Positions 11,911 through 63,385 of a stretch of 64,000 bases of DNA are shown here, piece after piece; within the stretch, counting starts at the first letter, position 1, and the number at the start of each line of letters is the position of its first letter. The translations under genes were made by a program, and so were the position numbers. The DNA comes from Mustelus asterias (taxonomy: Eukaryota), in NCBI RefSeq assembly GCF_964213995.1, contig NC_135821.1, positions 4,960,001 through 5,024,000 on the forward strand, written 5' to 3'. The notes under the pieces are model-generated. The model worked only from the letters and a program-made list of their open reading frames with translations. It was not told the origin of the DNA and searched no databases.

Positions 11911-13509
11911 ATGTCAGGGGGACTAGCAGGGTAAATACATGGGGTTACGGGGATAGGGCCTCGGTGGAAGTGTTGTTCGGTGCAAGCTCGATGGGCCCAA
12001 TGGCCTCTTTCTGCTCTGTAGGGATTCTACGATGCTATGAACTCAGCAGGTCTGGCATCAGCTGTGGAGAGAGAAACAGGGTTAATGTTTTGAGTCTGCC
12101 TGTCTCTTCTTCAGAGCAGAAGAGTGGCTGAGACGTCAGTGTTTCAGATGAAGTGTGCCCTGTTCCATCTCAGAAAGGTCGTGAGGAGATTTGACAGAGG
12201 CATTCCGAATCCTGAGTGGACTGGACAGGGGAGGTTGAGAGAATTTCCATTGATAGAAAGGCTGAAGATGCTGATTTGAGATGATTGAGAAGAAGCCATG
12301 ACGGCTCAATGAAGATCTTTTCCTGGGCAGTGAGTGACTAAGATCTGGAATGCGTTGCCTGAATGAAGGAAGATTCAATTGTGAATTTTCAAATGGATTT
12401 GAATCGAAGAGAAAAATATTTGAAGGGCAGTGGAGAAGAGTTTTTATATTCATTCATGGGACTTGGGCGTCGCTGGCTGGGCCAGCATTTATTGCCCATC
12501 CCTAGTTGCCCTTGGAGGGGCAGTTGAGAGTCAACCACATTGCTGTGGCTCTGGAGTCACATGTAGGCCAGACCGGGTAAGGACGGCAGATTTTCTTCCC
12601 TAAAGAACATTAGTGAACCAGATGGATTTTTCCGACAACCAACAATGGTTTCATGGTCATCAGTAGATTCTTAATTCCAGATTTTTTTTTAAATCGAATT
12701 CGAATTCCTCCATCTACCGTGGCAGGATTCGCACCCAGGCTACCAGAACATTAGCTGAGTTTCTGGATTAATAATCTAGTGATAATACCACTAGGCCATC
12801 GCCTCCCCTCTTTAGGGCAGAAAATTCCAGAGATTCACCACCCTCTGCGAAAAGAAATTTCTACACACCTCAGTTTTAAATGAGCGGCCCTTTATCTTGT
12901 AGCGATGTCCCCTTGTTTGAGACTCTCCCACTCGTGAAAACATCTCACCATCTACTCTGTCGAGCTCCCTCAGGACGTTATATGTCTGATAAAGGTCATC
13001 CCTCACTCCAAGGAATACAGACCCAGAATATTTAGTCTCTCTTAATAGGATAACTCTCTCATCCCAGGAATTAAGACCATAATATATAGTGTTAGTGAAG
13101 GACATTAGTGAACAAGATGGATTTTTCCACAATCGACAATGGTTTCCTGGTCATCAGTAGATTCTTAATTCCAGATATTTTTTATTGAATTCAAATTCCA
13201 CCAGCTGCTGTGGCGGGATTCGAACCCGGGTCCCCAGAACATTAGCTGAATTTCTGGATTAATAGTTCAGCGATAATACCAATAGGGTGATCCAAATGCA
13301 GTGGGGGCTAAGTTGAGTTGAACTTGCAGAGAGCGGTCCAAATGATCTCCTTCTGTTAGCCGAGGTGGGCTGTCTTTTTTATAAAAGCAAATTACTGCGG
13401 ATGCTGGAATCTGAAACCTTAATTTTTCAGCATTTTCTCTTTTGGTGTCTTTTTAAAAAATATTTATTTATCGGGGACATGGGTGTCACTGGCTGATCAG
13501 CATTTATTG

Positions 13510-14378
13510 TAAGAAGTCTCACAACACCAGGTTAAAGTCCAACAGGTTTATTTGGCAGCACTAGCTTTCGGAGTCTCGCTCCTTCATCAGGTGAGTGAGG
13601 ACTTGTGTTCACAAACAGGGCATATACAGACACAAACTCAATTTACAAGATAATGGTTGGAATGCGAGTCTTTACAGGTAATCAAGTCTTAAAGGTACAG
13701 ACCATGTGAGTGAAGAGAGGGTTAAGTACAGGTTAAAGAGATGTGTATTGTCTCCAGCCAGGACAGTTTGTGAGATTTTGCAAGCCCAGGCAAGTCGTAG
13801 ATAGTGTGACATGAACCCAAGATCCCGGTTGAGGCCGCCCTCATGTGTGCGGAACTTGGCTATCAGTTTCTGCTCAGCGATTCTGCGTTGTCGTGTGTCA
13901 TGAAGACCACCTTGGAGAACGCTTACCCGAAGATCAGAGGCTGAATGCCCGTGACTGCTGAAGTGTTCCCCGACAGGAAGGGAACACTCCTGCCTGGTGA
14001 TTGTCGAGCGGTGTTCATTCACCCGTTGTCGTAGCGTCTGCATGGTCTCCCCAATGTACCATGCCTCGGAACATCCTTTCCTGCAGAGTATCAGGTAGAC
14101 AACGTTGGCCAAGTTGCAAGAGTAGGTACCGCGTACCTGGTGGATGGGGTTCTCACGTGAGATGATGGCATCCGTGTCGATAATCCGGCACGTCTTGCAG
14201 TGATTGCTGTGGCGTGTCGTGGTCACTGTGACAGTGAACAGAACTCCTCACTCACTTGAAGAAGGAGCCTGAGACTCCGAAAGCTTGTGCTGCCAAATAA
14301 ACCTGTTGGACTTTAATCTGGTGTTGTGAGACTTCTAACTGTGCCCACCCCAGTCCAATGCCGGCAACTCCACATCAT
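13510..14378 (-). mobile_element. Penelope-like element 3' fragment with GIY-YIG endonuclease and inverted terminal repeats
   Basis: ORF 13672-14226 VVYLILCRKGC...YIGET...LRQRVNEH; 13510-13600 and 14245-14340 are inverted copies. Confidence 0.9.
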
Positions 14379-14556
14379 AGCATTTATTGCCCATCCCATT
14401 GACAATGATCATCTTTAGATTTTTTAATTCCAGATTTATATTGAATTCAAATTTAACCATCTGCCGCGGTGGGATTCGAACCCAGCTCCCCAGAGCATCA
14501 GTCTGGGTCTCTGGATTGCTAGTCCATTGATAACTGCTATGTGCCACTGCCACACC

Positions 14557-25816: not shown

Positions 25817-26773
25817 AGTTGTTAAACCTTTACTGTTTTGCCTCTTAATGTTGTTCGGATCCACAGGGAAAGACTAGGGTCCCCTTTTCACATAGCGAAT
25901 GTCGCACCAGCCACGTATGATCTCCTAAAAGGTGCTTGTGTGGGTAGCTAGCTTTCCTGGAATTTGGCCAAATGACCAGCCTTTTTGGTGACCCTGCATG
26001 TCTTCTCCTGCCTGTCACTTCTCGACCCAAACAGGGATGCCAGCTTTCCCACAGAAGCTTCAGGATTCCTGGGTCCATCCTTGTCCTCTATTGATGCACT
26101 TCAGACAACTTGCCCGACGTAAAACTGAACTGGAAACCTTCCTGATCGATTATGGCTCTGTCTCACACCTAACAATGTACTCCAGAATTCTTAAAGGAAC
26201 AAGAGCGGGAGGCGATGGCCTAGTGGTATTATGGCTAGACTATTAATCATCCAGAAACTCAGCTAATGCTCTGGGGACCCGGGTTCGAATCCCGCCACGG
26301 CAGATGGTGGAATTTGAATTCAATAAAAAAATCTGGAATTAAGAATCTACAGGTGACCCATTGTCGGAAAAACTCATCTGGTTCACTAATGTCCTTCAGG
26401 GAAGGAAATCTGCCGTCCTTACCTGGTCTGGCCTACATGTGACTCCAGAGCCACAGCAATGTGGTTGACTCTCAACTGCCCTCGGGCAACTCGGGATGGG
26501 GTAATAACTGCTGGCCAGCCAGCGATACCCATGTCCCATGAATGAATTTTTAAAAAAGATGTCTGCCATGACAACTCAAATGACCTACGCTTGTATAAAA
26601 ATCTTTCACAGCCAACTTGGAAATATATCGCCGTTCCTCCACTGGATCAAAACCCTGGAGCTCCCTCCCTAACAGCACTGTGGGTGGATCCAGTTGGTGA
26701 ACTAAGCTACAATATGGAGAGATGAGTAGCTCACCTGATGAAGGAGTGGCGCTCCGAAAGCTCGTGCTACCAA

Positions 26774-26812
26774 ATCGCTTCTCGGCCTTTTGGCTAAGAT
26801 CAAGTGTAGTAT
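26774..26812 (+). pseudogene. RNU2: U2 snRNA 5' fragment (nt 1-39)
   Basis: ATCGCTTCTCGGCCTTTTGGCTAAGATCAAGTGTAGTAT equals the vertebrate U2 5' end including the branch-site pairing GTAGTA; rest of U2 absent. Confidence 0.92.
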
Positions 26813-27112
26813 GGATCGCCTGCACTTGGTTGAGGTCATTAGGTTACACTGAGGCTTCATGTGTTTCATATGAAGCAATTTTTAAAAGCGGCATCTCGGC
26901 CTTTTGGCTAAGATGCAAATGAGCTCAAGTCTTGGAGGAGGATCCTCCCCCTTCTCCAATCAGCTTGACTCATGTAGATCAGGCCCAGGACAGGGTGGTT
27001 TTGGTCTCCCGCCCTGTCTTTGTCAGCCTGGATCTGAAATGTCTCAACTTGTTGAGACTCTGAATTGGATTTGATTTGATTGAATTGGAAAAGTATAAAA
27101 AAAAATAAAAAA
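26774..27112 (+). mobile_element. U2 snRNA-headed, structured, A-tailed retroposed insertion (SINEU-like or U2 chimera)
   Basis: Starts exactly with U2 nt 1-39, has a second U2 piece at 26891-26914, ends in an A tail, and splits a Penelope terminal repeat (ctaccaa|...|cctgttggac). Confidence 0.75.
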
Positions 27113-30100
27113 CACCTGTTGGACTTTAACCTGGTGTTGTAAGACTACTTACTGTGCCTACCCCTGTCCAACGTCGGCAACTCCACATCATGGAGACCAG
27201 GAAAGGAGGGTAGATTTCCTTCCCTAAAGGACACGAGTGAACCAGATGGGTTTTTCTGACAATCAACAATGGGTCATCAGTAGCTCCTTAACTCCAGATA
27301 TTTTTATAGAATTGAAATTCCACCATCTGCCGTGACCGGATTCTAACACAGTCTCCAGCTGGCTGAGGGATGAATTGACCAAGACAACTGGAGAATTCAA
27401 CCACCCTTCTCCCAATGATACCATAGATTTTCTCAAACTGACTTGAGAGATTTGAAATGCAAAACAGCTGTGTGGAAAGTGCAGCATTCCCTCAAAACTG
27501 CACTGGGAGCGTCAGACAAGAGTTACCTCCAGATTGGGCTACAACTAATAAGTGGTGATCATGACCGATATTTTACGACCTCGGGCGAGGCTTGTAAAAT
27601 CCCACCCGAGGCCAGCGGAGAATACCGTTCTGTGAGCCGTGGGGTGGGCGTGGCGGTAAAATTCCAGCACACAGGTTTGAAAAGCAAGAGTTCAACATTA
27701 AAGAAAGTCACCCAGGAGCAATTAGGTTACACCAGTAATACCCAAACTGTATTAAGTGCCCACACAAAAACAGAAAATGCTGGAAAATCTCAGCAAGTCT
27801 GATAGCACCTGTGGAGACAGAATAGAGCCAACATTTCAAGTCTGGATGACCCTTCGTCAGAGCTGTATTAAGTGCCCATTCGTTCAAATTTGTAAATTTG
27901 AACATTATATCTCGGCATGCGTGTGAAGTTTTAAAGTTTAAAGTGTACTTATTAGTGTCACAATTAGGCTTACATTAACACTGCAATGAAGTTACTGTGA
28001 AAATCCCCTAGTCGCCACCACTTCGGCGCCTGTTCGGGTACACTGAGGGAGAATTTAGCACGGTCAATGCACCCCAACCAGCACATCTTTCAGACTGGGA
28101 GGAAACCAGAGCACCCGGAGGAAACCCACGCAGCAAGAACGTGCAAACTCCACACAGACAGTGACCCAAGCCGGGAATTGAACCTGGGTTCCTGGCGCTG
28201 TGAGGCAGCAGTGCTAACCACTGTGCCATTGTAATAGGCTTCATGCTGCGCAATTTTGGTGAAATGTAACTGAACCCCATTTGATTAGTAACCAACCTTT
28301 GACCACCATCTTTGGGCAAGCTCATTTGCACAAGAGATCCATGAATACACAGCGGTAGTGGTAATGTCACGAGACTAGTAATCCAGAGACGAAGCCTCAT
28401 GCTCGGGAACACTGGTTCAATTGTGAAAAAACCATCCAGTTTGCCAACACCTTTTACCAAAGGAAGTTGCCATCCTTATCCAGTCTGCCCTACTCGTGAC
28501 TCCAGACCCACGTCAATGTGGTTGACTCTCAGCCACGACAGTACAAGAGCAATTAAAGATGGGGTTACAAATGTAGTCCTAGCCTGTGACATCCATGGCC
28601 CTTGAAGAAAATGTTGTTAGGGAAATGGCAAGGCTCATAGAATCCTACAATACAGGAGGCCATTCAGCCCATTGAGTCTGTACCAACCACAGTCCCACCC
28701 AAGCCCTATCCCCATAATCCCATGCATTTACCCTAGCTAGTTCCCCTGATACTAAGGGGCAATTTAGCATGGCCAATCCACCTAACCCGCACATCTTTGG
28801 ACTGTGGGAGGAAACCGGAGCACCCGGAGTTTTTAAGTTTATTTATTAGAGTCACAAGTAAGGCTTACGTTAACACTGCAATGAAGTTACTGTGAAAATC
28901 CCCGCCACACTCCGGCGCCTGTTAGGGAACGGTGAGGGAGAACTTAGCATGGTCAATGCACCTAACCAGCACATCTTTGGACTGAGGGAGGAAACCAGAG
29001 CACCCGGAGGAAATCCATGCAGACACGGGGAGAATGTGCAAACTCCGCACAGACAGTGACCCAAGCTCAGAATCGAACCTAGATCTCTGGTACTGTGAGG
29101 CAGCAGTGCTAACCACTGTGCCACCATGCCCCCCCGAGGAAACCCATGCAGACACAGGGAGAACATGCAAACTCCACACAGACAGTGACCCAAGCCAGGA
29201 ATCGAAGCTGGGTCCCTGGCGCTGTGAGGCAGCAGCGCTAACCACTGTGCCACCCACAAACTATTTTGACTGGTGCTGAACTTACTCCTTGGGGAAGGAG
29301 TAGCCAGTCTATTTTTTTCAATTCATTTTTGGGATACGGGCATTGCTGGCTGGCCAGCATTTATTGCCCATCCCTAGTTGCCTGAGGACAGTTAAAAGTC
29401 AACCACATTGCTATGGCTCTGGACTCACACATAGGCCAGACCAGGTAAGGATGGCAGATTTCCTTCCCTAAATAGTGAATCAGATGGGTTTTTCCTGACA
29501 ATGGGTTATCATTTATGCTTAATTCCCGATTTTATTTAATTCAAATTCCACCATCTGCCATAGTGGCACAATGATTAGCACTGCTGCCTTACAGCACCAG
29601 GGTTTGGTTCCTGGCTTGGGTCACTGTGTCGAATTTGCATTCCCCCCGTGTCTGTGGGGTTTCCTCCCGTTGCTCCGGTTTCCTCCCAGTCCAAAGATGT
29701 GCAGGTTCAGTGGATTAGCTATGCTAAATTGCCCCTTAATGTCAGGGGGAACTATAGAATCCTTTCTTTAAAATTTGTTAGTCACAAGTAAGGCTTACAT
29801 TAACACTGCAATGAAGTTACTGTGAAATTTCCCTAGTCGCCACACTCTGGCGCCTGTTCGGGTACACTTAGGGAGAATTTAGCATGGCCAATGCACCCTA
29901 ACCAGCACATCTTTCAGACCTGTGGAAGGAAACCAGAGCACCCCGAGGAAACCCACACAGACACAGGAAGAACATGTAAACTCCACAGTGACACAAGCCA
30001 GGAATTGAACCTGGGTCCCTGGCGTGTGGCTTTTGCTACCAAATAAACCTGTTGGACTTTAACCTGGTGTTGTTAAACTTCTTACTGTGAGACAGCAGTG

Positions 30101-31046: not shown

Positions 31047-31202
31047 TTAACTGCTCTCTTCCAGAGAGTGCTTGTCAAACAGGTATTCAGCCATGCCATT
31101 CTGGGGAGCACCCAAACGGACCAGGTTGGTGATGAAGTCGCCAAGCTTCTTGATGGCTTGAACCTGCTCATCCAAGTAGTGAGTTTCCAGAAAATCACAC
31201 AT
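31047..31202 (-). CDS. fth1: Gene C exon 4 ([51 protein letters not shown])
   Basis: ttctAG acceptor, TAA at 31049-31047. Confidence 0.96.
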
Positions 31203-33722
31203 CTAGAACAAGAATTTTTTTAAAAAGTGGTTGTTAGCACTGATGATTTTGAAAAAAAAAAATCAGAATTTCTAGAGTGCAAGAGGAGGCCATTTGGCCC
31301 ATCAAGCCTGCACCAACTCCAATAACAATCCTTCCCAGGTAGTATCCCTGTAATTTGACATTTTACCCTGCCAATCCCCTGAAAGGAGCAACTTGTGGCC
31401 AACCCAACCTGCACATCAGATACTATGGGGAAATTCAACATGGCTAATCCATCTAACCTACATACCTTTGACTGGGAGGAAACCCATGCCGACATGGCAG
31501 AACATGCAAGCTACAGTTACCCAGGGCCAGAATTGGATCCCAGATCCCTGGCACTGGGAGGCAGCAGTGCTAACCACTGCCTCAAATTAAATGCTTATTG
31601 TTTAGCTAGTGCAGTATTTAATCAGTCTTTGGCCATCGTAAATTAACATTACAATTAGTTTAGTTTATCTTGGGGGTTAGGTAGTCCATTGAAGAGTAAA
31701 AGTAAAGTTTATTTATTAGTCATAAGTAGGCTTATATTAACCCTGCAAAGTAGTTACTGTGAAAATCCCCTAGTCGCCACACTCTGGCACCTATTCGGGT
31801 CCAGTGTGGGAGATTTTAGCATGACCAGTGACCAATTTAGCATGAATTCATTGCTAGGGACCCAGGTTCAATTCTGGCCTCAGGTCACTGTCTGTGTGGA
31901 GTTTGCACATTCTCCCTGTGGCTGCGCGAGTTTCCTCCGGTTTCCTCCCACAGTCCAAAGATGTGCGGGTTAGGTTGAGTGGCTATGCTAAATTAACCGT
32001 AGTATCAGGGGGATTAGCAGGGTAAATGTGTGGGGTTACAGGAATAGGGTCTGGGTGGGATTGTGGTCAGTGCAGACTCCATGGGCTGAATGGCCTCCTT
32101 CTGTACTGTCGGAATTCTATGACCAATGCACCTAACTAGCATGTCTTACAGACTATGGGAGGAAACCTGGGGAGTCGGTGGAAACCCACGCAGACACGGA
32201 GAACATGCAAACTCCACACAGATAGTGACCCAAGCTGGGAATTGAATCCAGGTCTCTGGAGCAGTGAGGCAGCAGTGCTAACCACCATGCCACCAAATTG
32301 TGAACAAAGTGACTGAGATAGAATCATATAATACCAAGAAGCCATTCAGCCCATCCAGTCCACACCAACCATAATCCCACCCAGGCCCTATCCCCCTACA
32401 TATTTATCTTGCTCATCTGCCTGATGCTCATGGGTAATCAATCCACCCAACCTGCACATCTTTGGACTGTGGGAGGAAACCCACACAGACATGGGGAGAA
32501 TGTGCAAAATCCACACACAGTGAGCTAAGGCCAGAATTGAACCCAGGTCCCTGTGGCACTGTGAGGCAGTGCTAACCACTGCCACCAGATCAGCAACAAA
32601 TCATTTGCAAAATATGAAAAATATTCAGGATTCATAGACTATTCCATCTATCTTCCCACAGGAAAATTCTTGCTGTCAGATGGCAAGGCTAATAAACAGT
32701 AGGCCGGTCCCTTTGTCTCAATATTTTACAGTCCAAAATGATAATTAATACTTGTTAGATAAAAGTCTGCAGTCCACATAGCCTTAACTGAACTGGGGAG
32801 AGAGTTTAAGAGCAGGAGAAAAACTGGCCTTGGGAAGAACAAAGAGGCTGGTACGTACATGTGCATCGACCTTGTCGGAAGCTAGTTTGTGCAGCTCCAG
32901 GAGGGACTGATTCACAGTCTTCTCCAAATGAAGGGCGCATCTCATGGCTTCAAGACCATTACTCCACTCATCCCGGTCAGGTTTCTAGAAGGAAGAGACC
33001 AAAACAAAAAAGTGATTAGATCACAAATTGAGAGAGAGAGAGACAGACAGACAGAGCATATAATTGAGAGAAAGGCAACCCCCTTTGTACTAACCGAGAC
33101 GTCCTGCAGGATAACACGGCCCCCGCGCTGGTTTTGGAATTTCATCAACTTTTCTGCATGTTCCCTCTCCTCGTGCGATTGGTGTTTGAAAAACTTGGCA
33201 AAGTTCTGCAGGGCGACATCATCTCTGTCGAAGTAGGCATACTGGGAGAGGGAGAGAGTTATTAAAGTAGAACCAAAAAAAATTTACAAATTCCTCCAAA
33301 TACCATTGAGATTCTGCTATGAAATTCGAATCTGCTACGAATTAAACTATTTCCTAGAATTGAGATGTTTACCAGCTTAGATCTTAAGAGTGTTTTTAAA
33401 AATAAACTTGAAGAGGGACCACTCCCTTTTATTCACAAAGGCAAAAGCACCAGGAGGTCTGGGTGAAATGGCTTTGTGTCTAAAAGATAAGGGGATTTCT
33501 CGCAAGACCTGACCCCCCCTTTCTCCCAGTCAAAGAGATGAAATTTACCATCTTAGTGTCCTCCGCAACTCAGATTTCTCTCCCTCCCGCCCCAAGAACA
33601 AGCTGCAATTGTAACCTTACCATGGAGATGTAGACATAGGAAGCGTACAGCTCCATGTTGATCTGGCGATTAATTGCTGCTTCGCATTCCTGGTGGTAGT
33701 TCTGGCGGACTTGAAAAGCCAT
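31047..33722 (-). CDS. fth1: Ferritin gene C, complement join(33621..33722,33095..33241,32859..32984,31047..31202), 176 aa ferritin heavy chain (orthology to FTH1 not proven)
   Basis: Four GT-AG phase-0 exons, intact frame, full ferroxidase centre ([12 protein letters not shown]), canonical IRE. Confidence 0.96.
32859..32984 (-). CDS. fth1: Gene C exon 3 ([42 protein letters not shown])
   Basis: ttctAG acceptor, GTacgt donor, 126 nt. Confidence 0.96.
33095..33241 (-). CDS. fth1: Gene C exon 2 ([49 protein letters not shown])
   Basis: cccAG acceptor, GTtagt donor, 147 nt. Confidence 0.96.
33621..33722 (-). CDS. fth1: Gene C exon 1 ([34 protein letters not shown])
   Basis: agaATGg start, GTAAGG donor at 33620. 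Confidence 0.96.
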
Positions 33723-33813
33723 TCTTCTTCCAAATCAGCAAGTTGACAAAACAAGTGTTAAAAAAAAAAGATTTTTTTTTTCAAAACTTAGAAGTAGGAA
33801 GCTGGGGGTTCTA

Positions 33814-33841
33814 TTCCGTTCAAACACTGTTGAAGCAAGAA
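33814..33841 (-). promoter_or_regulatory. Iron-responsive element (IRE) in gene C 5' UTR
   Basis: TTCTTGCTTCAACAGTGTTTGAACGGAA: CAGTGT loop, 5-bp upper stem, ferritin-type UGC/C bulge, cap-proximal. Confidence 0.97.
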
Positions 33842-33948: not shown

Positions 33949-33964
33949 TTAACTCTTACAATGT

Positions 33965-34315
33965 TGTACTACCAAATAAACCTGTTGGACTTCAACCTGG
34001 TGTTGTGAGACTTCTTACTGTGCCCACCCCAGTCCAACACCGGCATCTCCACATCAGGGTTTCACAACACCAGGTTAAAGTCCAACAGTAGCATGAGCTT
34101 TCAGAGTGCTGCTCCTTCATCAGCTGAGTGCAGGATTTGTTTCACAAACAGGGCACATATAGACACAAACTCAATTACAAGATAATCTGTAACCCCCCAC
34201 GACTTGCCTGGGCTTGCAAAATCTCACTGACTGTCCTCTCTCCCACTCACATTGTCTGCACCTGTAAAGACTTGACTACCTGAGCAGACTCGCATTCCAA
34301 CCATTATCTTGTAAG
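33965..34315. mobile_element. Penelope terminal-repeat fragments in inverted arrangement just upstream of the gene C promoter
   Basis: ccaaataaacctgttggact...ctccacatc followed by the inverted copy with a hammerhead-like motif at about 34093-34125. Confidence 0.75.
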
Positions 34316-43964: not shown

Positions 43965-44590
43965 GATGTGGAGATGCCGGCGTTGGATTGGGGTGGGCAC
44001 AGTAAGAAGTCTCACAACACCAGGTTAAAGTCCAACAGGTTTATTTGGTAGCAAATACCATAAGCTTTCGGAGCACAGCTCCTTCATCAGATGGAGTGGA
44101 TATCTGTTCTCCAACAGTGCACAGACACAGAAATCAAGTTACAGAATACTAATTAGAATGCAAATCTTTACAGCCAGCCAGGTCTTAAAGGTACAGATAA
44201 TGTGGGTGGAGGGAGCATTCAACACAGGTTAAAGAGATGTGTATTGTCTCCAGACAGAACAGCTAGTGAGATTCTACAAGCCCAGGAGGCAAGCTGTGGG
44301 GGTTACTGATAATGTGACATAAATCCAACATCACGGTTTAGGCCGTCCACATGTGTGCGGAACTTGGCTATCAGTTTCTGCTCAGCGACTCTGCGCTGTC
44401 GTGTGTCGTGAAAGCCGCCTTGGAGAACGCTTACCTGAAGATCCAAGGCTGAATGCCCGGCTGAATCCAAGGCTGAATCCAAGGCATTCAGCCTTGGATC
44501 TTCAGGTAAGCGTTCTCCAAGGCGGCCTTCACAACACACGACAGCGCAGAGTCGCTGAGCAGAAACTGATAGCCAAGTTCCGCACACATG
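43965..44590 (-). mobile_element. Penelope 3' fragment ending in a fold-back hairpin
   Basis: RRVAEQKLIAKFRTH encoded on both strands; terminal repeat at 43965-44095. Confidence 0.88.
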
Positions 44591-50384: not shown

Positions 50385-50900
50385 GATACTAAGGGGCAAT
50401 TTAGCACGGCCAATCCACCTAACCTACACACCTTTAGACACTAAGGGGCAATTTAGCATGGCCAATCCACCTAGCCTGCATATCTATGGACACTAAAGGG
50501 CAATTTAGCATGGCCAATCCACCTAACCTGCACATCTTTGGACACTAATGGGCAATTTAGCATGGCCAATCCACCTAACCCGCACATCTTTGGACACTAA
50601 TGGGCAATTTAGCATGGCCAATCCACCTAACCCGCACATCTTTGGACACTAAGGGGCAATTTAGCATGGCCAACCAACCTAACCTGCATATCTATGGACA
50701 CTAAGGGGCAATTCAGCATGGCCAACCAACCTAACACGCACATCTTTAGGCACTAAGGGGCAATTTAGCATGGCCAATCCACCTAACCTGCATATCTATG
50801 GACAGTAAGGGGCAATTTAGCATGGCCAACCAACCTAACCCGCACACCTTTGGACACGAAGGGAGAATTTAGCACGGCCAATGCACCTAACCCGCACGTC
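50385..50900 (-). repeat. Tandem array of about 52-bp HE1 internal unit (about 10 copies)
   Basis: Reverse complement of the unit at 11295. Confidence 0.9.
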
Positions 50901-53900
50901 TTTCAGACTGTGGGAGGAAAACGGACTGTGGGAGGAAAACCCAGGCAGACATGGGGAGAACATGCAAACTCCACACAGACAGTGACCCGAGACTGGAATT
51001 GAACCCGGGTCCCTGGCGCTGTGAGACAGCAGCGCTAACCAGCGTGCCACCACATGGATGGGAGACTGAGGACTTCTCACTGGGCCCAGGATTGGTGCGT
51101 GAATGGGTCATTCCTGGGTGGGTGACTGTTGGGAGAGCTGGAGGGTGTGGGGACAGAGGTGGAGGTTGCAGCATTTGGTCAGGGGCAGAGGGGTGGCAGG
51201 TGAACTGGATAGCGGGGTCAATCCTGGGAGGGGCAGGGTGTATGCCAACATGGGGTTGGAGAGATGGGGGAGAAATAGATTCATAGAATCCCGACAGTGC
51301 AGAAGATGCCATTCGGCCCATCAAAGCTGCACTGATGCTCTGTGACAGAGTATCTTACCCAGGCCCTCACCCCCGTCCTATCCCTATAACCCCACACGTC
51401 TACCATGGCCAGTCCCCCTAACCTGCACATCTTTTGGACTGTGGGAGGAAACTGGAGCACCCGGAGGAAACCCACGCAGACACGGGAAGGATGTGCAGTC
51501 TCCATACAGACAGTGACCCGAGGCCAGGAATTGAACCTGGGTCCCTGGCGCTGTGAGGCAGCAGTGCTAACCACTGCCACTGTGCCAACATGGAACCCCC
51601 CCCACCCCCCCACACTGTGGAATCCAATCCCCCCCCTCCAACCCCCACCCCCCCCAGAGCATTAGCCTCTGGATTACTAATGACATTCCCACTGTGCCAC
51701 CGTCTCGCCTGAGTCCTGCAGCCAATGAATGAACCCGTCATTCATTCAAATACAAAGCAACTCACAATCCGCAGAATCATTCATTTCATTCATAAATTTC
51801 CCTCACCGATCTCCCGACTCTACTGGCCCAGGAGGAGCCCAGAGTGTCGCTCAGTTCCATCACGGCACGGTGGCACAGTGGTTAGCACTGCTGCTTCACA
51901 GCGCCAGGGACCCGGGTTCGATTCCCAGCTTGGGTCACTGTCTGTGTGGAGTTTGCACGTTCTTCCCCTGTCTGCGTGGGTTTCCTCTGGGTGCTCCGGT
52001 TTCCTCTCACAGTCCAAAGATGTGCAGGTTCGGCGGATTGGCCGCACTAAATTGTCCCTTAGTGTCCAAAGATGTGCAGGTTAGGTGGATTGGCCATGCT
52101 AAATTGCCCCTTAGTGTCCCAAAGATGTGTCGGTTAGAGGGAATTAGTGGGGTAAATACGTGGAGTTACAGGGATGGGATCTGGGTAAGATGCTCTGTTG
52201 GTGAGTTGGTGCAGTGTCTGAAGATGTATAGGTTAGATGGCATTAGTGATGGTAAATGTGTGAGATTATAGTAATAGGGCGGGGGAGCGGGCTTCGGTAA
52301 GTAACTCTGTCAGAGAGTCCACAAAACCATAAGATATAAGAGCAGAAGTAGGCCATTCGGCCCATTGAGTCTGCTCTGCCATTCAATCATGGCTGATATA
52401 TTTCTCAACTCCATTCCCCCACCTTTGATCTTTGATCCCCTTACCAATCAAGAACCTATCTATCTCCGTCTTAAACGCACTCAATGATCTAGCCTCCACT
52501 AGTGCTGACTCGATGGGCCGAATGGCCTCTTCTGCACTGCAGGGAATGGTATGAATTGCAGCCGTTCCCAATCCTTGTCCTCTTCCAGGTAGGGATTGGC
52601 GGAGGAAAGCTGACCGCCCGACTGGTTTGCCATCTGAAAGCGACAATGGAGTGATTGTACGCTTCTCAGCGAGCGATCTCTATCAGTGAGCTTCCAGCTT
52701 GCAACAGGGGAAATCCCCACACATTCTCACGGTGCTCGGAAATGGGAGCCCTGAGTGCCCCCCTCCCCCCCCCCCCCCCCCCCGCCCCGCCACCCAGCAC
52801 CCAACCCCTCTCTTGCCCTGTCATTGCTGAGATGCTAAGGTGCCCTTGGCACAGACTGCGATCTGCCTGGCACCGTAAGGTCCACAATCTTTACTGAGTG
52901 TGGCCTTTGTCCATTGGTCCGTGGCTGGGGTGGACTCACCGTGTTTATTTGGGTAAATTCAACTCCCAAGTACAGTCGCTGATTTGTTTTTGAGATACAC
53001 GAGTGCTGCACCGTGCTCTGGTAAACAGAGAAGTTATTCAAATCTCACTGTCAATACATAGTGGCTCCAAAATGTTTAAACAGTGAGGACAGATTATTGT
53101 TTAGTGATGTCTGCATTTTGTCGACTGTTAACTCATGTAATCCGGGATTGCAAATGCTCGTAACCTGTTGGTGTAAGATTCATTCAATATGGTGGGGCTA
53201 TTAGCAAGGTCAAGTTTATTTATTAGTCATAAGTAGGTTTACATTAACACTGCAATGAAGTTACTGTGAAATTCCCCGAGTCGCCACACTCCAGGCGCCT
53301 GTTCGGGTCAATGCACCCTAACCAGCACGTCTTTCAGACTGTGGTTGGAAACCGGAGCACCCGGAGGAAACCCACGCAGACATGGGGAGAATGTGCAAAC
53401 TCTACACGGACAGTGACCCAAGCCGGGGATCGAACCTGGGTCCCTGGCGCTGTGAGGCAGCAGTGCTAACCACTGTGCCACCTTGCCGCCCCATGTTGGT
53501 GTAAGATTAATTCAGTATGGTGGGGCTTTTAATAAAGTAAAGTAAAATTTATTTATTGGTCACAAGTAGGCACAGTGGTGGGCGACACGGTGGCACAGTG
53601 GTTAGATGTGCAGGTTAGGTGGATTGGCCATGCTAAATTTCCCCTTATTGTCCCAAGATGTGTCGGTTGGAGGGAATTAGTAGGGTAAATGCGGGGGGTT
53701 ACAGGGATAGGATCTGGGTAAGATGCTCTGTTGGTGAGTTGGTGCAGTGTCTGACGATGTATAGGTTAGATGGGATTAGTGATGGTAAATGTGTGGGGTT
53801 ACGGTAATAGGCCGGTGGGGAGAGAGCTTGGGTAAGTAACTCAGTCAGAGGGTCCATAAGGTATAGGAGCAGAATTAGGCACTGCTGCTTCACAGCTCCA

Positions 53901-54633
53901 GGGACCTGCATTCGATTCCCGGCTTGGGTCACTGTCTGTGTGGAGTTTGCACGCTCTCCCTGTGTCTGTGTGGGTTTCCTCCTACAGTCTGAAAGACGTG
54001 CTGGTTAGGTGTATCGGCCATGCCAAATTCTCCCTCAGTGTTACCCGAACAAGTGCCGGAATGTGGCGACTGGGGGATTTTCACAGCAACTTCATTGCAG
54101 TGTTAAGGTAAGCCGACTTGTGACACTAATAAGTACACTTCACTCCAGCAACACTCAAAAGGCTCGACAACATCCAGTACAAAGCAGCCCCGCGTGACTG
54201 GCACCCAACCTACCACCTTCAGCATCCACTCCCTCCAGCACCGACGCACAGGGGCTGCAATGTGTACCATCTACAAGATGCACTGCATCAACTCACCAGG
54301 ACTCCTTCAACAGCACCTTCCAAACCCGCGACACACAACACCTAGCTCTGGTAAACAGAGAAGCTATTCAAAACTCACCGTCAATATATAGTGGCTCCTA
54401 ATGTTTACACAGTGAAGACAGATTATTGATTAGTGATGACTGTTTTTTGTTGACAACGATAGTTTTCAACTTAGGTGACCCCAGTTCTAGGCATTTATTC
54501 ACTGATCACGTGTAAGCAGGGGCGACACGGTGGCGCAGTGGTTAGCACTGCTGTCTCACAGCGCCAGGGACCTGGGTTCAATTCCAGCCTTGGATGACTA
54601 TCTGTGTGGAGTTTGCACATTCTTCCCAGAACC

Positions 54634-56153
54634 AGGGGTCACTGTTTTAAAATTAGGGGGTCACCCTTCCAGGACAGAGATGAGCGAGGAGAGTTTTTTT
54701 CTGAGGGTCATGCGACTTTGGAACTCTGCCTCAGAAGGCGGTGAAGACGGGGTCCCTGAATATTTTGAAGACAGAAGCAGATAGATTCTTGTCAGATGAG
54801 GGAGTCAAAGGTTACCGGGGTAGATGGGAATGTGGAACTCAACGCAAACAGATCCGCCATGATCTTATTGAATGGTGGAAGGGGTTCGATGGGCCAAATG
54901 GCCTACTCCTGCTCCCATTTCATGTGACTTGGAATTATATTGTCCATCCTTCACTGTCACTGAGGCAAAATCCTGGAACTCCATCCCTTACACCATAGAA
55001 TCATAGAATAGAATCATAGAATCCCTACAGTGCAGAAAGAGGCCATTCAGCCCATCGAGTCTGCACCGAGCACAATCCCACCCAGGCCCTATCCCCGTAA
55101 ACCACATATTTACCCTGCTAATCCCCCTGACACTAAGGGGCAATTTGTCTGTATGGCGCACAAGAAACAATACTTTTCACTGTATATAAATACATGTGAC
55201 AATAATAAATCAAATCAAAACAAAATCTAATTTAGCACGGCCAATCCACCAGGTCTGCGTGGGTTTCCCCCGGGGGCTCCGGTTTCCCCCCACACTCCAA
55301 AGATGTGCGGATTAGGCGAATTGGCCGTGCTAAATTGCCCCCTTAAGTGTCGGGCAGACTAGCTAGGGTAAATATGTGGGGTTACAGGGATAGGGCTTGG
55401 GTGGGATTGTGGCTGGTGCAGGCTGGATGGGCTGAATGGCCTCTTGGCACTGTATGATTCTATCTCAGCCACTTTGTTCACATAAGGGACTACCTAAGCT
55501 CCAGGATAAACTATTTATAATGTTAGTTCCCACACTCCAAAGATGTGCAGGTTCGGTGGATTGGCTGTGCTAGATTAGATTTTGTTTTGATTTGATTTAT
55601 TATTGTCACATGTATTTATATACAGTGAAAAGTATTGTTTCTTGCGCGCCATACAGACTAAATTGCCCCTTAGTGTCAGGGGGATTAGCAGGGTAAATAT
55701 GTGGGTTTACGGGGATAGGGCCTGAGTGAGATTGTGGTTGGTGCAGACTCGATGGGCTGAATGACCCCCTTCTGCACTATAGGGATTCTATGATTCTATT
55801 CTATGATTCTATGGTGTAAGGGAGGGAGTTCCAGGATTTTGCCTCAGTGACAGTGAAGGATGGACAATATAATTCCAGGTCATATGGAATGGGAGCAGGA
55901 GTAGGCCATTTGGCCCATCGAACCCCTTCCACCATTCAATAAGATCATGGCGGATCTGTTTGCGTTGAGTTCCACATTCCCATCTACCCCGGTAACCTTT
56001 GACTCCCTCATCCTACAAGAATCTATCTGCCTCTGTCTTCAAAATATTCAGGGACCCCGTCTTCACCGCCTTCTGAGGCAGAGTTCCAAAGTCGCACAAC
56101 CCTCAGAGAAATAATTTCTCATCTCTGTCCTGGATTTTAAAACAGTGACCCCT
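54634..56153. repeat. Inverted duplication, arms 54634-55250 and 55555-56153
   Basis: Arms are near reverse complements across several nested TE junctions. Confidence 0.92.
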
Positions 56154-56509
56154 AGTTGTGGACTCACCCACAAGAGGAAACATCCTTTCCAATGCCCAAC
56201 TTGCCGAGATCATTCAGGATCTTACAAACTTCAATCAAGTCACCCCTCACTCTTCTAAACTCCATGGAAACAAGCCCCGTCTGTCTAACCACATTTGAAT
56301 GGTGAGCTGTGACTTGGAGGGGAACATCCAGGTGCAGGTGTTCTCCGTGTGTCTACTATCCTTGTCCTTCTAGATGGTAGAGGTCACAGGTTTGGAAGGT
56401 GCTGTTGAAGGAACCTTGTTGAATTGCTGAAGTGCATCTTGTAGATGGTACACACGGCTGCCATTGTGTGTCGGTGGTGGAGGGAGTGAATGTTCAGTTT
56501 ATTTTATTA

Positions 56510-62520: not shown

Positions 62521-63385
62521 TAAGTCTGATGGCAGCAGGGAAGAAGCTGTTCTTGAGTCGGTTGGTACGTGACCTCAGACTTTTGTATCTTTTTCCCGAT
62601 GGAAGAAGGTGGAAGAGAGAATGTCCGGGGTGCGTGGGGTCCTGAATTATGCTGGCTGCTTTTCGGAGGCAGTAGGAAGTGTAGACGGAGTCAATGGATG
62701 GGAGGCTGGTTTGCGTGATGGATTGGGCTACATTCACGACCTTTTGTAGTTCCTTGCAGTCTTGGGCAGAGCAGGAGCCATAACAAGCTGTGGTACAACC
62801 AGAAAGAATGCTTTCTATGGTGCATCTGTAAAGGTTGGTGAGAGTCATAGCTGATATGCCAAATTTCCTTTGACTTCTGAGAAAGTAGAGGTGTTGGTGG
62901 GATTTCTTAACTATAGTGTCGGCATGAGGGGACCAGGACAGGTTGTTGGTGATCTGGACACCTAAAAACCTGGAGCTCTCGACCCTTTTTACTTCGTCCC
63001 CATTGATGTAGACAGGGGCATGTTCTCCACTACGCTTCCTGAAGTCGATGACTATCTCCTTCATTTTGTTATGATGTGGAGATGCCGGCGTTGGACTGGG
63101 GTGGACACAGTAAGAAGTCTCACAACACCAGGTTAAAGTCCAACAGGTTTATTTGCAATCACGAGCTTTCGGAGTGCCGCTCCTTCCTCAGGTGAGTGAC
63201 CCACCTGATGAAGGAGCAGCACCCCGAAAGCTCGTGATTGCAAATAAACCCGTTGGACTTCATTTTGCCGACATTGAGGGAGAGATTATTGCCGTTGCGC
63301 CAGTTCGCCAGATCCTCTTTCCTCTACTCCGTCTCATCGTTGTTTGAGATCCGACCCCCTACGGTTGTGTCGTCAGTAAATTTGT
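62521..63385 (-). mobile_element. Rex1/Babar-type LINE fragment interrupted by a Penelope fold-back piece
   Basis: KEIVIDFR...FLGVQIT...RTNRLKNSFFPAAIRL; related 3' ends at 9580-9930, 39030-39500, 57270-57575 and 61120-61290. Confidence 0.82.
63069..63257. mobile_element. Penelope terminal-repeat palindrome with two opposed hammerhead-like motifs
   Basis: 10-bp duplication CTTCATTTTG at 63059-63068 and 63258-63267; arms about 63137-63194 and 63202-63260. Confidence 0.8.

Follow-up and report, generated by a model that had tools for sequence, protein, structure and literature searches.

Locus and anatomy of the insert

The window analyzed here, i.e., the whole stretch of DNA of 64 kb, contains a four-exon ferritin-like gene on the minus strand (31047-33841), which was named by eye from its translation and its iron response element (33814-33841; Rfam RF00037, 42 bits). 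About 4 kb past the stop codon of this gene, on the opposite strand, a copy of a dispersed repeat of putative Penelope type is interrupted by an insert of 339 nt (26774-27112). The features of the insert and its flanks are compiled in Table 1.

Table 1. Features of the U2-headed insert and of the repeat that it interrupts
Feature	Position	Strand	Basis
Host Penelope-type (putative) terminal repeat, left arm, about 44 nt	26729..26773	+	BLAST to other copies
U2 snRNA head, nt 1-39, comprising stem-loop I and the sequence for branch-point pairing	26774..26812	+	Rfam RF00004 alignment
Body segment predicted to pair with U2 nt 25-36 (12 bp, 3 G-U), burying the branch-point pairing sequence	26820..26831	+	MFE and centroid folds
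10-bp hairpin (predicted)	26854..26876	+	Fold
A/T-rich single-stranded linker with T5, where Rfam aligns the Sm site of U2	26877..26888	+	RF00004 alignment
Second U2 piece, nt 4-27, stem-loop I hairpin with base stem extended to 6 bp	26891..26914	+	BLAST, fold, Rfam
Right body, three to four stacked hairpins (predicted)	26915..27096	+	Fold z -4.87; none of Rfam's families at gathering score
A-rich tail (A9-T-A6) and 2 further letters, with ambiguous 3' junction, overlapping the AATAAA of the host	27097..27114	+	
Host Penelope-type (putative) terminal repeat, right arm	27115..27192	+	89-91% identity to four other long copies

The Rfam model of U2 snRNA (RF00004) was matched from position 26774 onwards with 49.1 bits (gathering score 46, E-value 9.6e-7). 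The alignment was continuous across model positions 1-39, and no real U2 match was obtained beyond. The second U2 piece was identical to nt 4-27 of the head at 23 of 24 positions and was placed by Rfam at model positions 7-26. From 5' to 3', the insert consists of U2 nt 1-39, 78 unique nt, U2 nt 4-27, about 180 unique nt, and a tail of the composition A9-T-A6 (27097-27112). The initial annotation had described a U2-headed insert of 340 bp with a head reaching from nt 1 to nt 39, a second U2 piece with one mismatch, and an A tail at its end; all of this was recovered, apart from the length.

The reading frames of the right body were interrupted within 60 codons. Two open stretches of the body were translated, and no protein relative was found, which is a weak test. 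Three Rfam models gave weak scores that represent generic hairpin matches (mir-26, 22.5 of 57 bits; HDV, 12.3 of 44; SNORD94, 16.9 of 60). The insert was also examined as a true dimer, and this was rejected because the unique parts have no homology to each other; the alignment of the left and the right unique part scored 18.5, which was equalled by 906 of 2000 shuffles.

No target site duplication could be resolved at the ends of the insert, and 0-4 nt are possible, because the first two letters of U2 are identical to the next letters of the host and the tail merges with an A run of the host. Five letters at 27110-27114 are not explained by the tail model or by the empty site.

Host repeat and relative age

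Other copies of the left arm were found by BLAST at 13552-13595, 14251-14296, 34088-34128, 44063-44093, and 63160-63196. The insertion point is located in the A-rich AATAAA region of the host repeat, and this site was empty in six of the seven anchored copies of the window, the seventh being the one that carries the insert. The repeat is split, as had been annotated, and the word "cleanly" used for this was slightly too strong in view of the unresolvable target site duplication, the first two U2 letters possibly belonging to the host, and the five odd letters.

An intact copy of the host repeat lies about 80 nt after a reading frame on the minus strand (13675-14247), for which the Pfam GIY-YIG domain was matched with an E-value of 0.0009 and 19.9 bits, under the cut-off of 22.6. 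The best relatives of this frame (25 matches out of 945 candidates) came from Mustelus asterias (89%), Scyliorhinus torazame (84%), and Heptranchias perlo (80%), and several longer shark relatives bear the reverse transcriptase domain PF00078. By these relatives, the window comes from a shark genome. From the GIY-YIG and reverse transcriptase domains we infer that the host is a terminal repeat of Penelope type. The region 13509-14378 would be a Penelope-type fragment, with the GIY-YIG frame between two copies of the terminal repeat in opposite orientation. Two inverted copies of the host repeat (33960-34128) extend to within about 70 nt of the GC-box/TATA-like region of the ferritin-like gene, on its upstream side.

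At 26729-26769, a few bases upstream of the insertion point, the host repeat has a motif that we take to be a hammerhead-like core; its other copies contain this motif, too. No hammerhead ribozyme was matched by Rfam up to an E-value of 10 in the region 13450-14450, which includes two intact copies of the repeat. The hammerheads of Penelope-like elements are described as being of the minimal type (PMC6155905).

The right arm of the split copy matched four other copies at 52-54 of 60 positions, compared to 55-58 of 60 among these copies themselves. Since the host arm has diverged by about 10% and the U2 head is unbroken, the insert is, judged by sequence divergence, younger than the host repeat.

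Predicted RNA fold

For the whole insert, a folding energy of -136.2 kcal/mol was calculated (z -7.37), and none of 100 shuffled sequences folded as strongly. The right half, which is free of U2 sequence (26915-27095), still reached a z value of -4.87 (0 of 200 shuffles); among 42 background stretches with the same length, the lowest value was -3.0. Taken by itself, the left unique part (26816-26890) was ordinary (z -1.39, 15 of 200 shuffles). The description of the insert as highly structured was corroborated by these values. In the minimum free energy fold of the right half, stems were predicted at 26925-30/26963-68 with 26932-41/26950-59 and at 26975-84/27026-36 with 26989-98/27009-18, followed by a hairpin at 27041-47/27052-58. 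All hairpins named in the initial annotation were present in this fold; the one at 27041-27058, given there as 8 bp with a loop of 2 nt, was predicted as 7 bp with a loop of 4 nt.

The predicted helix between the U2 head and the body segment at 26820-26831 was evaluated by a hand estimate, which put its probability by chance at about 8e-6 for a given placement and at about 0.06 when all placements are counted. The helix is only moderately unlikely by chance and hence no more than suggestive. Together with the above-chance structure, the predicted pairing of head and body would be more in keeping with a co-adapted unit than with a one-off join.

Promoter and transcription features

The linker at 26877-26888 does not conform to the pattern that we take to be the canonical Sm site. 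No B box was found in 26816-27112 by the one pattern that we assume to represent it. Inside the insert, oligo-T runs are present at 26879 (T5), 26902 (T4), and 26999 (T4); these internal T4-T5 runs and the missing B box would argue against transcription by RNA polymerase III. A Pol III-dependent SINE with a tRNA, 5S, or 7SL head was rejected because Rfam finds U2 alone at this site. An intact U2 snRNA gene was rejected as well, since the match ends at nt 39 and no proximal sequence element (PSE) above background is located upstream; the best upstream matches, obtained with human motifs only, were 9 of 19 (U6; motif from PMC1790723) and 8 of 15 (H1), both at background. The promoter elements of U2 are reported to be external only, with none internal (PMC4494074).

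The right half contains an octamer (26913; three in the window), a CCAAT box (26956), a GT box (26993), and a GC box (27009), and a TATA-like word is located at the tail junction, so that the motifs between 26913 and 27100 stand in promoter-like order. Octamer, long CCAAT, and GC box occurred together in 2 of 20000 shuffles, the motifs having been picked after viewing the sequence. Several of the octamer, CCAAT, GT, and GC motifs sit in arms of hairpins. A PSE near the 3' end, prompted by the octamer, was rejected (best match 10 of 19, reached at 579 places on the plus strand of the window). A promoter function of the 3' half for a tandem copy located downstream is conceivable, though unsupported.

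Copies elsewhere

In the 64-kb window, neither a second copy of the body (BLAST) nor a partner LINE (among the long frames) was found. For sampling of other data, 35 words of 31 letters were taken from the insert and checked in 22 listed sequencing runs; the listing ranks word holders first, and run sizes are given in million letters (reads or contigs). At least one word was present in 20 of the 22 runs (11 studies), and none in the other two. Four runs of organism A from study P1, which is a possible source of the window, held 0.57-0.74 of the words. Leaving out study P1, ten runs of organisms B-F from five studies held 0.29-0.46 (10-16 of 35 words). No more than 9 of the 35 words can fall completely within the U2 head; since 10-16 words were held, words of the body must be present in the runs of organisms B-F.

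Some of the holding runs are small (143, 317, and 380 million letters). The genome size is presumably in the multi-gigabase range. A single-copy locus of such a genome would seldom appear in small runs, and the word hits therefore favour many copies per genome. Shares of 0.29-0.46 also match one orthologous locus at a divergence of 1-4%. For organism C, two runs of about 1000 million letters each (X21 and X22) held no words; a third run of the same label and study (X6) held 0.37. Among the runs listed, no holder was designated as RNA. Six runs guessed to be RNA held shares of 0.09-0.26, which were not counted as evidence of expression; these words could stem from read-through of the ferritin gene 4 kb away.

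A 20-nt motif of the body had no match in collections of metagenomes, genomes, and viruses. For comparison, a 21-nt motif from the host repeat, which is abundant, was used; it gave nothing in two of the collections and matched a single bacterial contig in the third, and this contig had no other likeness to the window. These blank scans carry no weight because an abundant host repeat was effectively blank, too.

Relation to known elements

The principle of snRNA-headed retroposons is not new. SINEU-1 is a crocodilian SINE with a U1/U2 head, the copies of which are 83-92% identical to the consensus and hence old (Kojima 2015, PMC4494074). As far as this paper describes them, no SINEU was found outside the crocodilians, and their mode of transcription was left open (PMC4494074); according to a later account, the transcription mechanism had still not been shown in 2018 (PMC5786205). 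Like the insert, SINEU-1 as described has a 5' end derived from U2, repeated U2 pieces (in subfamilies of SINEU-1), and a length below 500 bp. Its unique 3' body, for which no LINE match is known, its poly(A) tail, and its internal oligo-T are shared as well, and both elements landed in another repeat. This host was Mariner-N4_AMi in the crocodilians, as opposed to the putative Penelope-type repeat in the shark; for the insert, any preference for its host repeat would be represented by one insertion (one of seven anchored copies). In contrast to the description of SINEU-1, the insert looks young and has no resolvable target site duplication. Of the features by which SINEU elements are recognized, the insert has the U2 head, the non-coding length below 500 bp, the A tail, recurrent U2 pieces, and internal oligo-T. 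The likeness concerns anatomy, and an origin independent of SINEU is likely.

The 3' end of the U2 head and the insertion site of the LINEs Keno and Utopia (nt 38/39) are no more than one base apart. The 3' flank of Utopia begins at U2 nt 39, and that of Keno is reported to be identical (PMC4640811, PMC6136364); the assertion that both insert at about the end of the head was accurate to within one base. Keno, an APE-type LINE of the Tx1 group, and Utopia, an RLE-type LINE, are described as targeting U2 genes and share the U2 break at nt 38/39 with the insert. Unlike these, the insert is non-coding, has no 3' flank of U2, and is located outside any U2 gene. A Keno or Utopia insertion in place was rejected, since the 3' flank is the putative Penelope-type repeat and the continuation of U2 from nt 39 is absent from the 64-kb window. 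The position of the junction alone cannot decide on the mechanism because template switching could yield the same junction.

A U2 head in a mobile unit outside U2 genes is also described for Tx1-Mar LINEs with U1/U2 heads, e.g., Tx1-11_Crp (PMC4494074). These LINEs are autonomous and the insert is not; they would be a candidate type of partner, and none was found among the long frames of the window. Chimeras of snRNA and LINE-1 as well as tailless U2 retropseudogenes contain, like the insert, U2 sequence that is complete at the 5' end and truncated at the 3' end, produced via the LINE machinery (bioRxiv 10.1101/2025.02.02.635956, PMC5322556). Unlike the putative family considered here, these are described as one-off products, and the tailless forms have target site duplications and neither a body nor a tail (PMC5322556). 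Among the vertebrates surveyed there, tailless U2 retropseudogenes are reported only from therian mammals and the anole (PMC5322556). No description of a U2-headed SINE in sharks was found in the titles and abstract openings of the literature searched, which covered few subscription papers, and such a family may already be catalogued in Repbase or Dfam.

Origin of the insert

On balance, we regard it as rather probable that the insert is one young copy of a SINEU-like, non-autonomous, U2-headed retroposon family of sharks that was moved by a LINE of the L1/Tx1 type. It is probably an snRNA-headed retroposon in a new lineage. The initial annotation had proposed an snRNA-headed SINE family; the anatomy of an snRNA-headed, A-tailed retroposon was confirmed, and the word shares support the family indirectly, no second copy having been seen. 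Such a family, if true, would point to more than one origin of snRNA-headed retroposons among vertebrates.

The most serious alternative, which we still hold to be unlikely, is a one-off chimera: a LINE copied a repeat that perhaps was headed by the inner U2 piece and then switched template to U2, so that nt 1-39 would occur in this copy only. Non-propagating chimeras of U1, U2, U4, U5, and U6 with LINE-1 products are known (PMC4494074, bioRxiv 10.1101/2025.02.02.635956), Kojima describes 26 copies of SINEU-2 with separately added 5' extensions (PMC4494074), and the run shares of 0.29-0.46 cover only part of the insert. Against such a join speaks that the 78 unique nt between the U2 pieces are predicted to pair with the outer head, and the remainder without the outer head still starts with a U2 piece and is hence U2-headed. 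Also improbable, and more so, is a single-copy insertion common by descent to closely related sharks, with no family behind it. One copy is seen, the word shares equal a divergence of 1-4% of a single counterpart, and X21 and X22 are without words; opposed to this are the words in runs of 143-380 million letters, and a structured, twice U2-headed, A-tailed RNA would imply a source locus and thus at least one more copy.

The insert might also be the processed pseudogene of a diverged but functional U2-like variant snRNA gene instead of a selfish element, which we consider quite improbable. It starts at nt 1, its structure is strong, and Rfam threads 180 nt on the whole U2 model, placing U-rich single-stranded sequence where the Sm site would be. 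However, past nt 39 there is no U2 match except the second stem-loop I, the presumed Sm pattern is absent at that site, the branch-point sequence would be buried, and the length amounts to 320 nt plus the A tail. Least probable is a non-autonomous copy of Keno or Utopia inserted into a pre-existing U2 fragment, with the head being the target. The junction at the Keno/Utopia site agrees with this, but the finding of the host repeat instead of U2 nt 39 onward in the 3' flank largely refutes it, and head and body jointly interrupt the host repeat.

For the preferred family of U2-headed retroposons, the RNA would begin at U2 nt 1, fold as a chain of hairpins, and end in the A tail. A LINE presumably belonging to the L1/Tx1 group would have copied it by target-primed reverse transcription, with the A-rich AATAAA region of the older Penelope-type repeat as the target. 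The unit may have grown by addition of a U2 piece and about 78 nt before an older U2-headed unit, as in SINEU-1. Provided that the family exists, its source copy could tentatively be placed in a U2 gene at nt 38/39, where Pol II would transcribe it from the external U2 promoter, although we would not call this the expected case. Such a location is the most economical one because U2 has no internal promoter, and the RNA of a source copy at the Keno site would have its 5' end exactly at nt 1 and part from U2 at nt 38/39. Dispersed copies such as the insert would be promoterless, and the 12-bp hairpin over the branch-point sequence might stop the RNA from acting as U2 in splicing. With a young shark family in which the U2 head stops at the Keno/Utopia site, a source copy in a U2 gene becomes a testable answer to the transcription of SINEU.

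All these elements might be combined to an abundant young mimic of U2, the source of which occupies the Keno site of a U2 gene and uses the Pol II promoter of U2, with a sealed branch-point hairpin sparing splicing and the 3' half (octamer, CCAAT, GC-box, TATA-like) serving as promoter for the copy behind. This combination is improbable as a whole; if true, it would directly reveal the mode of transcription of snRNA-headed SINEs, and this in another lineage of vertebrates.

Other repeats of the window

An inverted repeat with arms of 627 nt, 92% identity, and a spacer of about 300 nt is located at 54626-56161. At 50385-50903, units of about 52 nt are arrayed in tandem, which are built of part of a common dispersed repeat.
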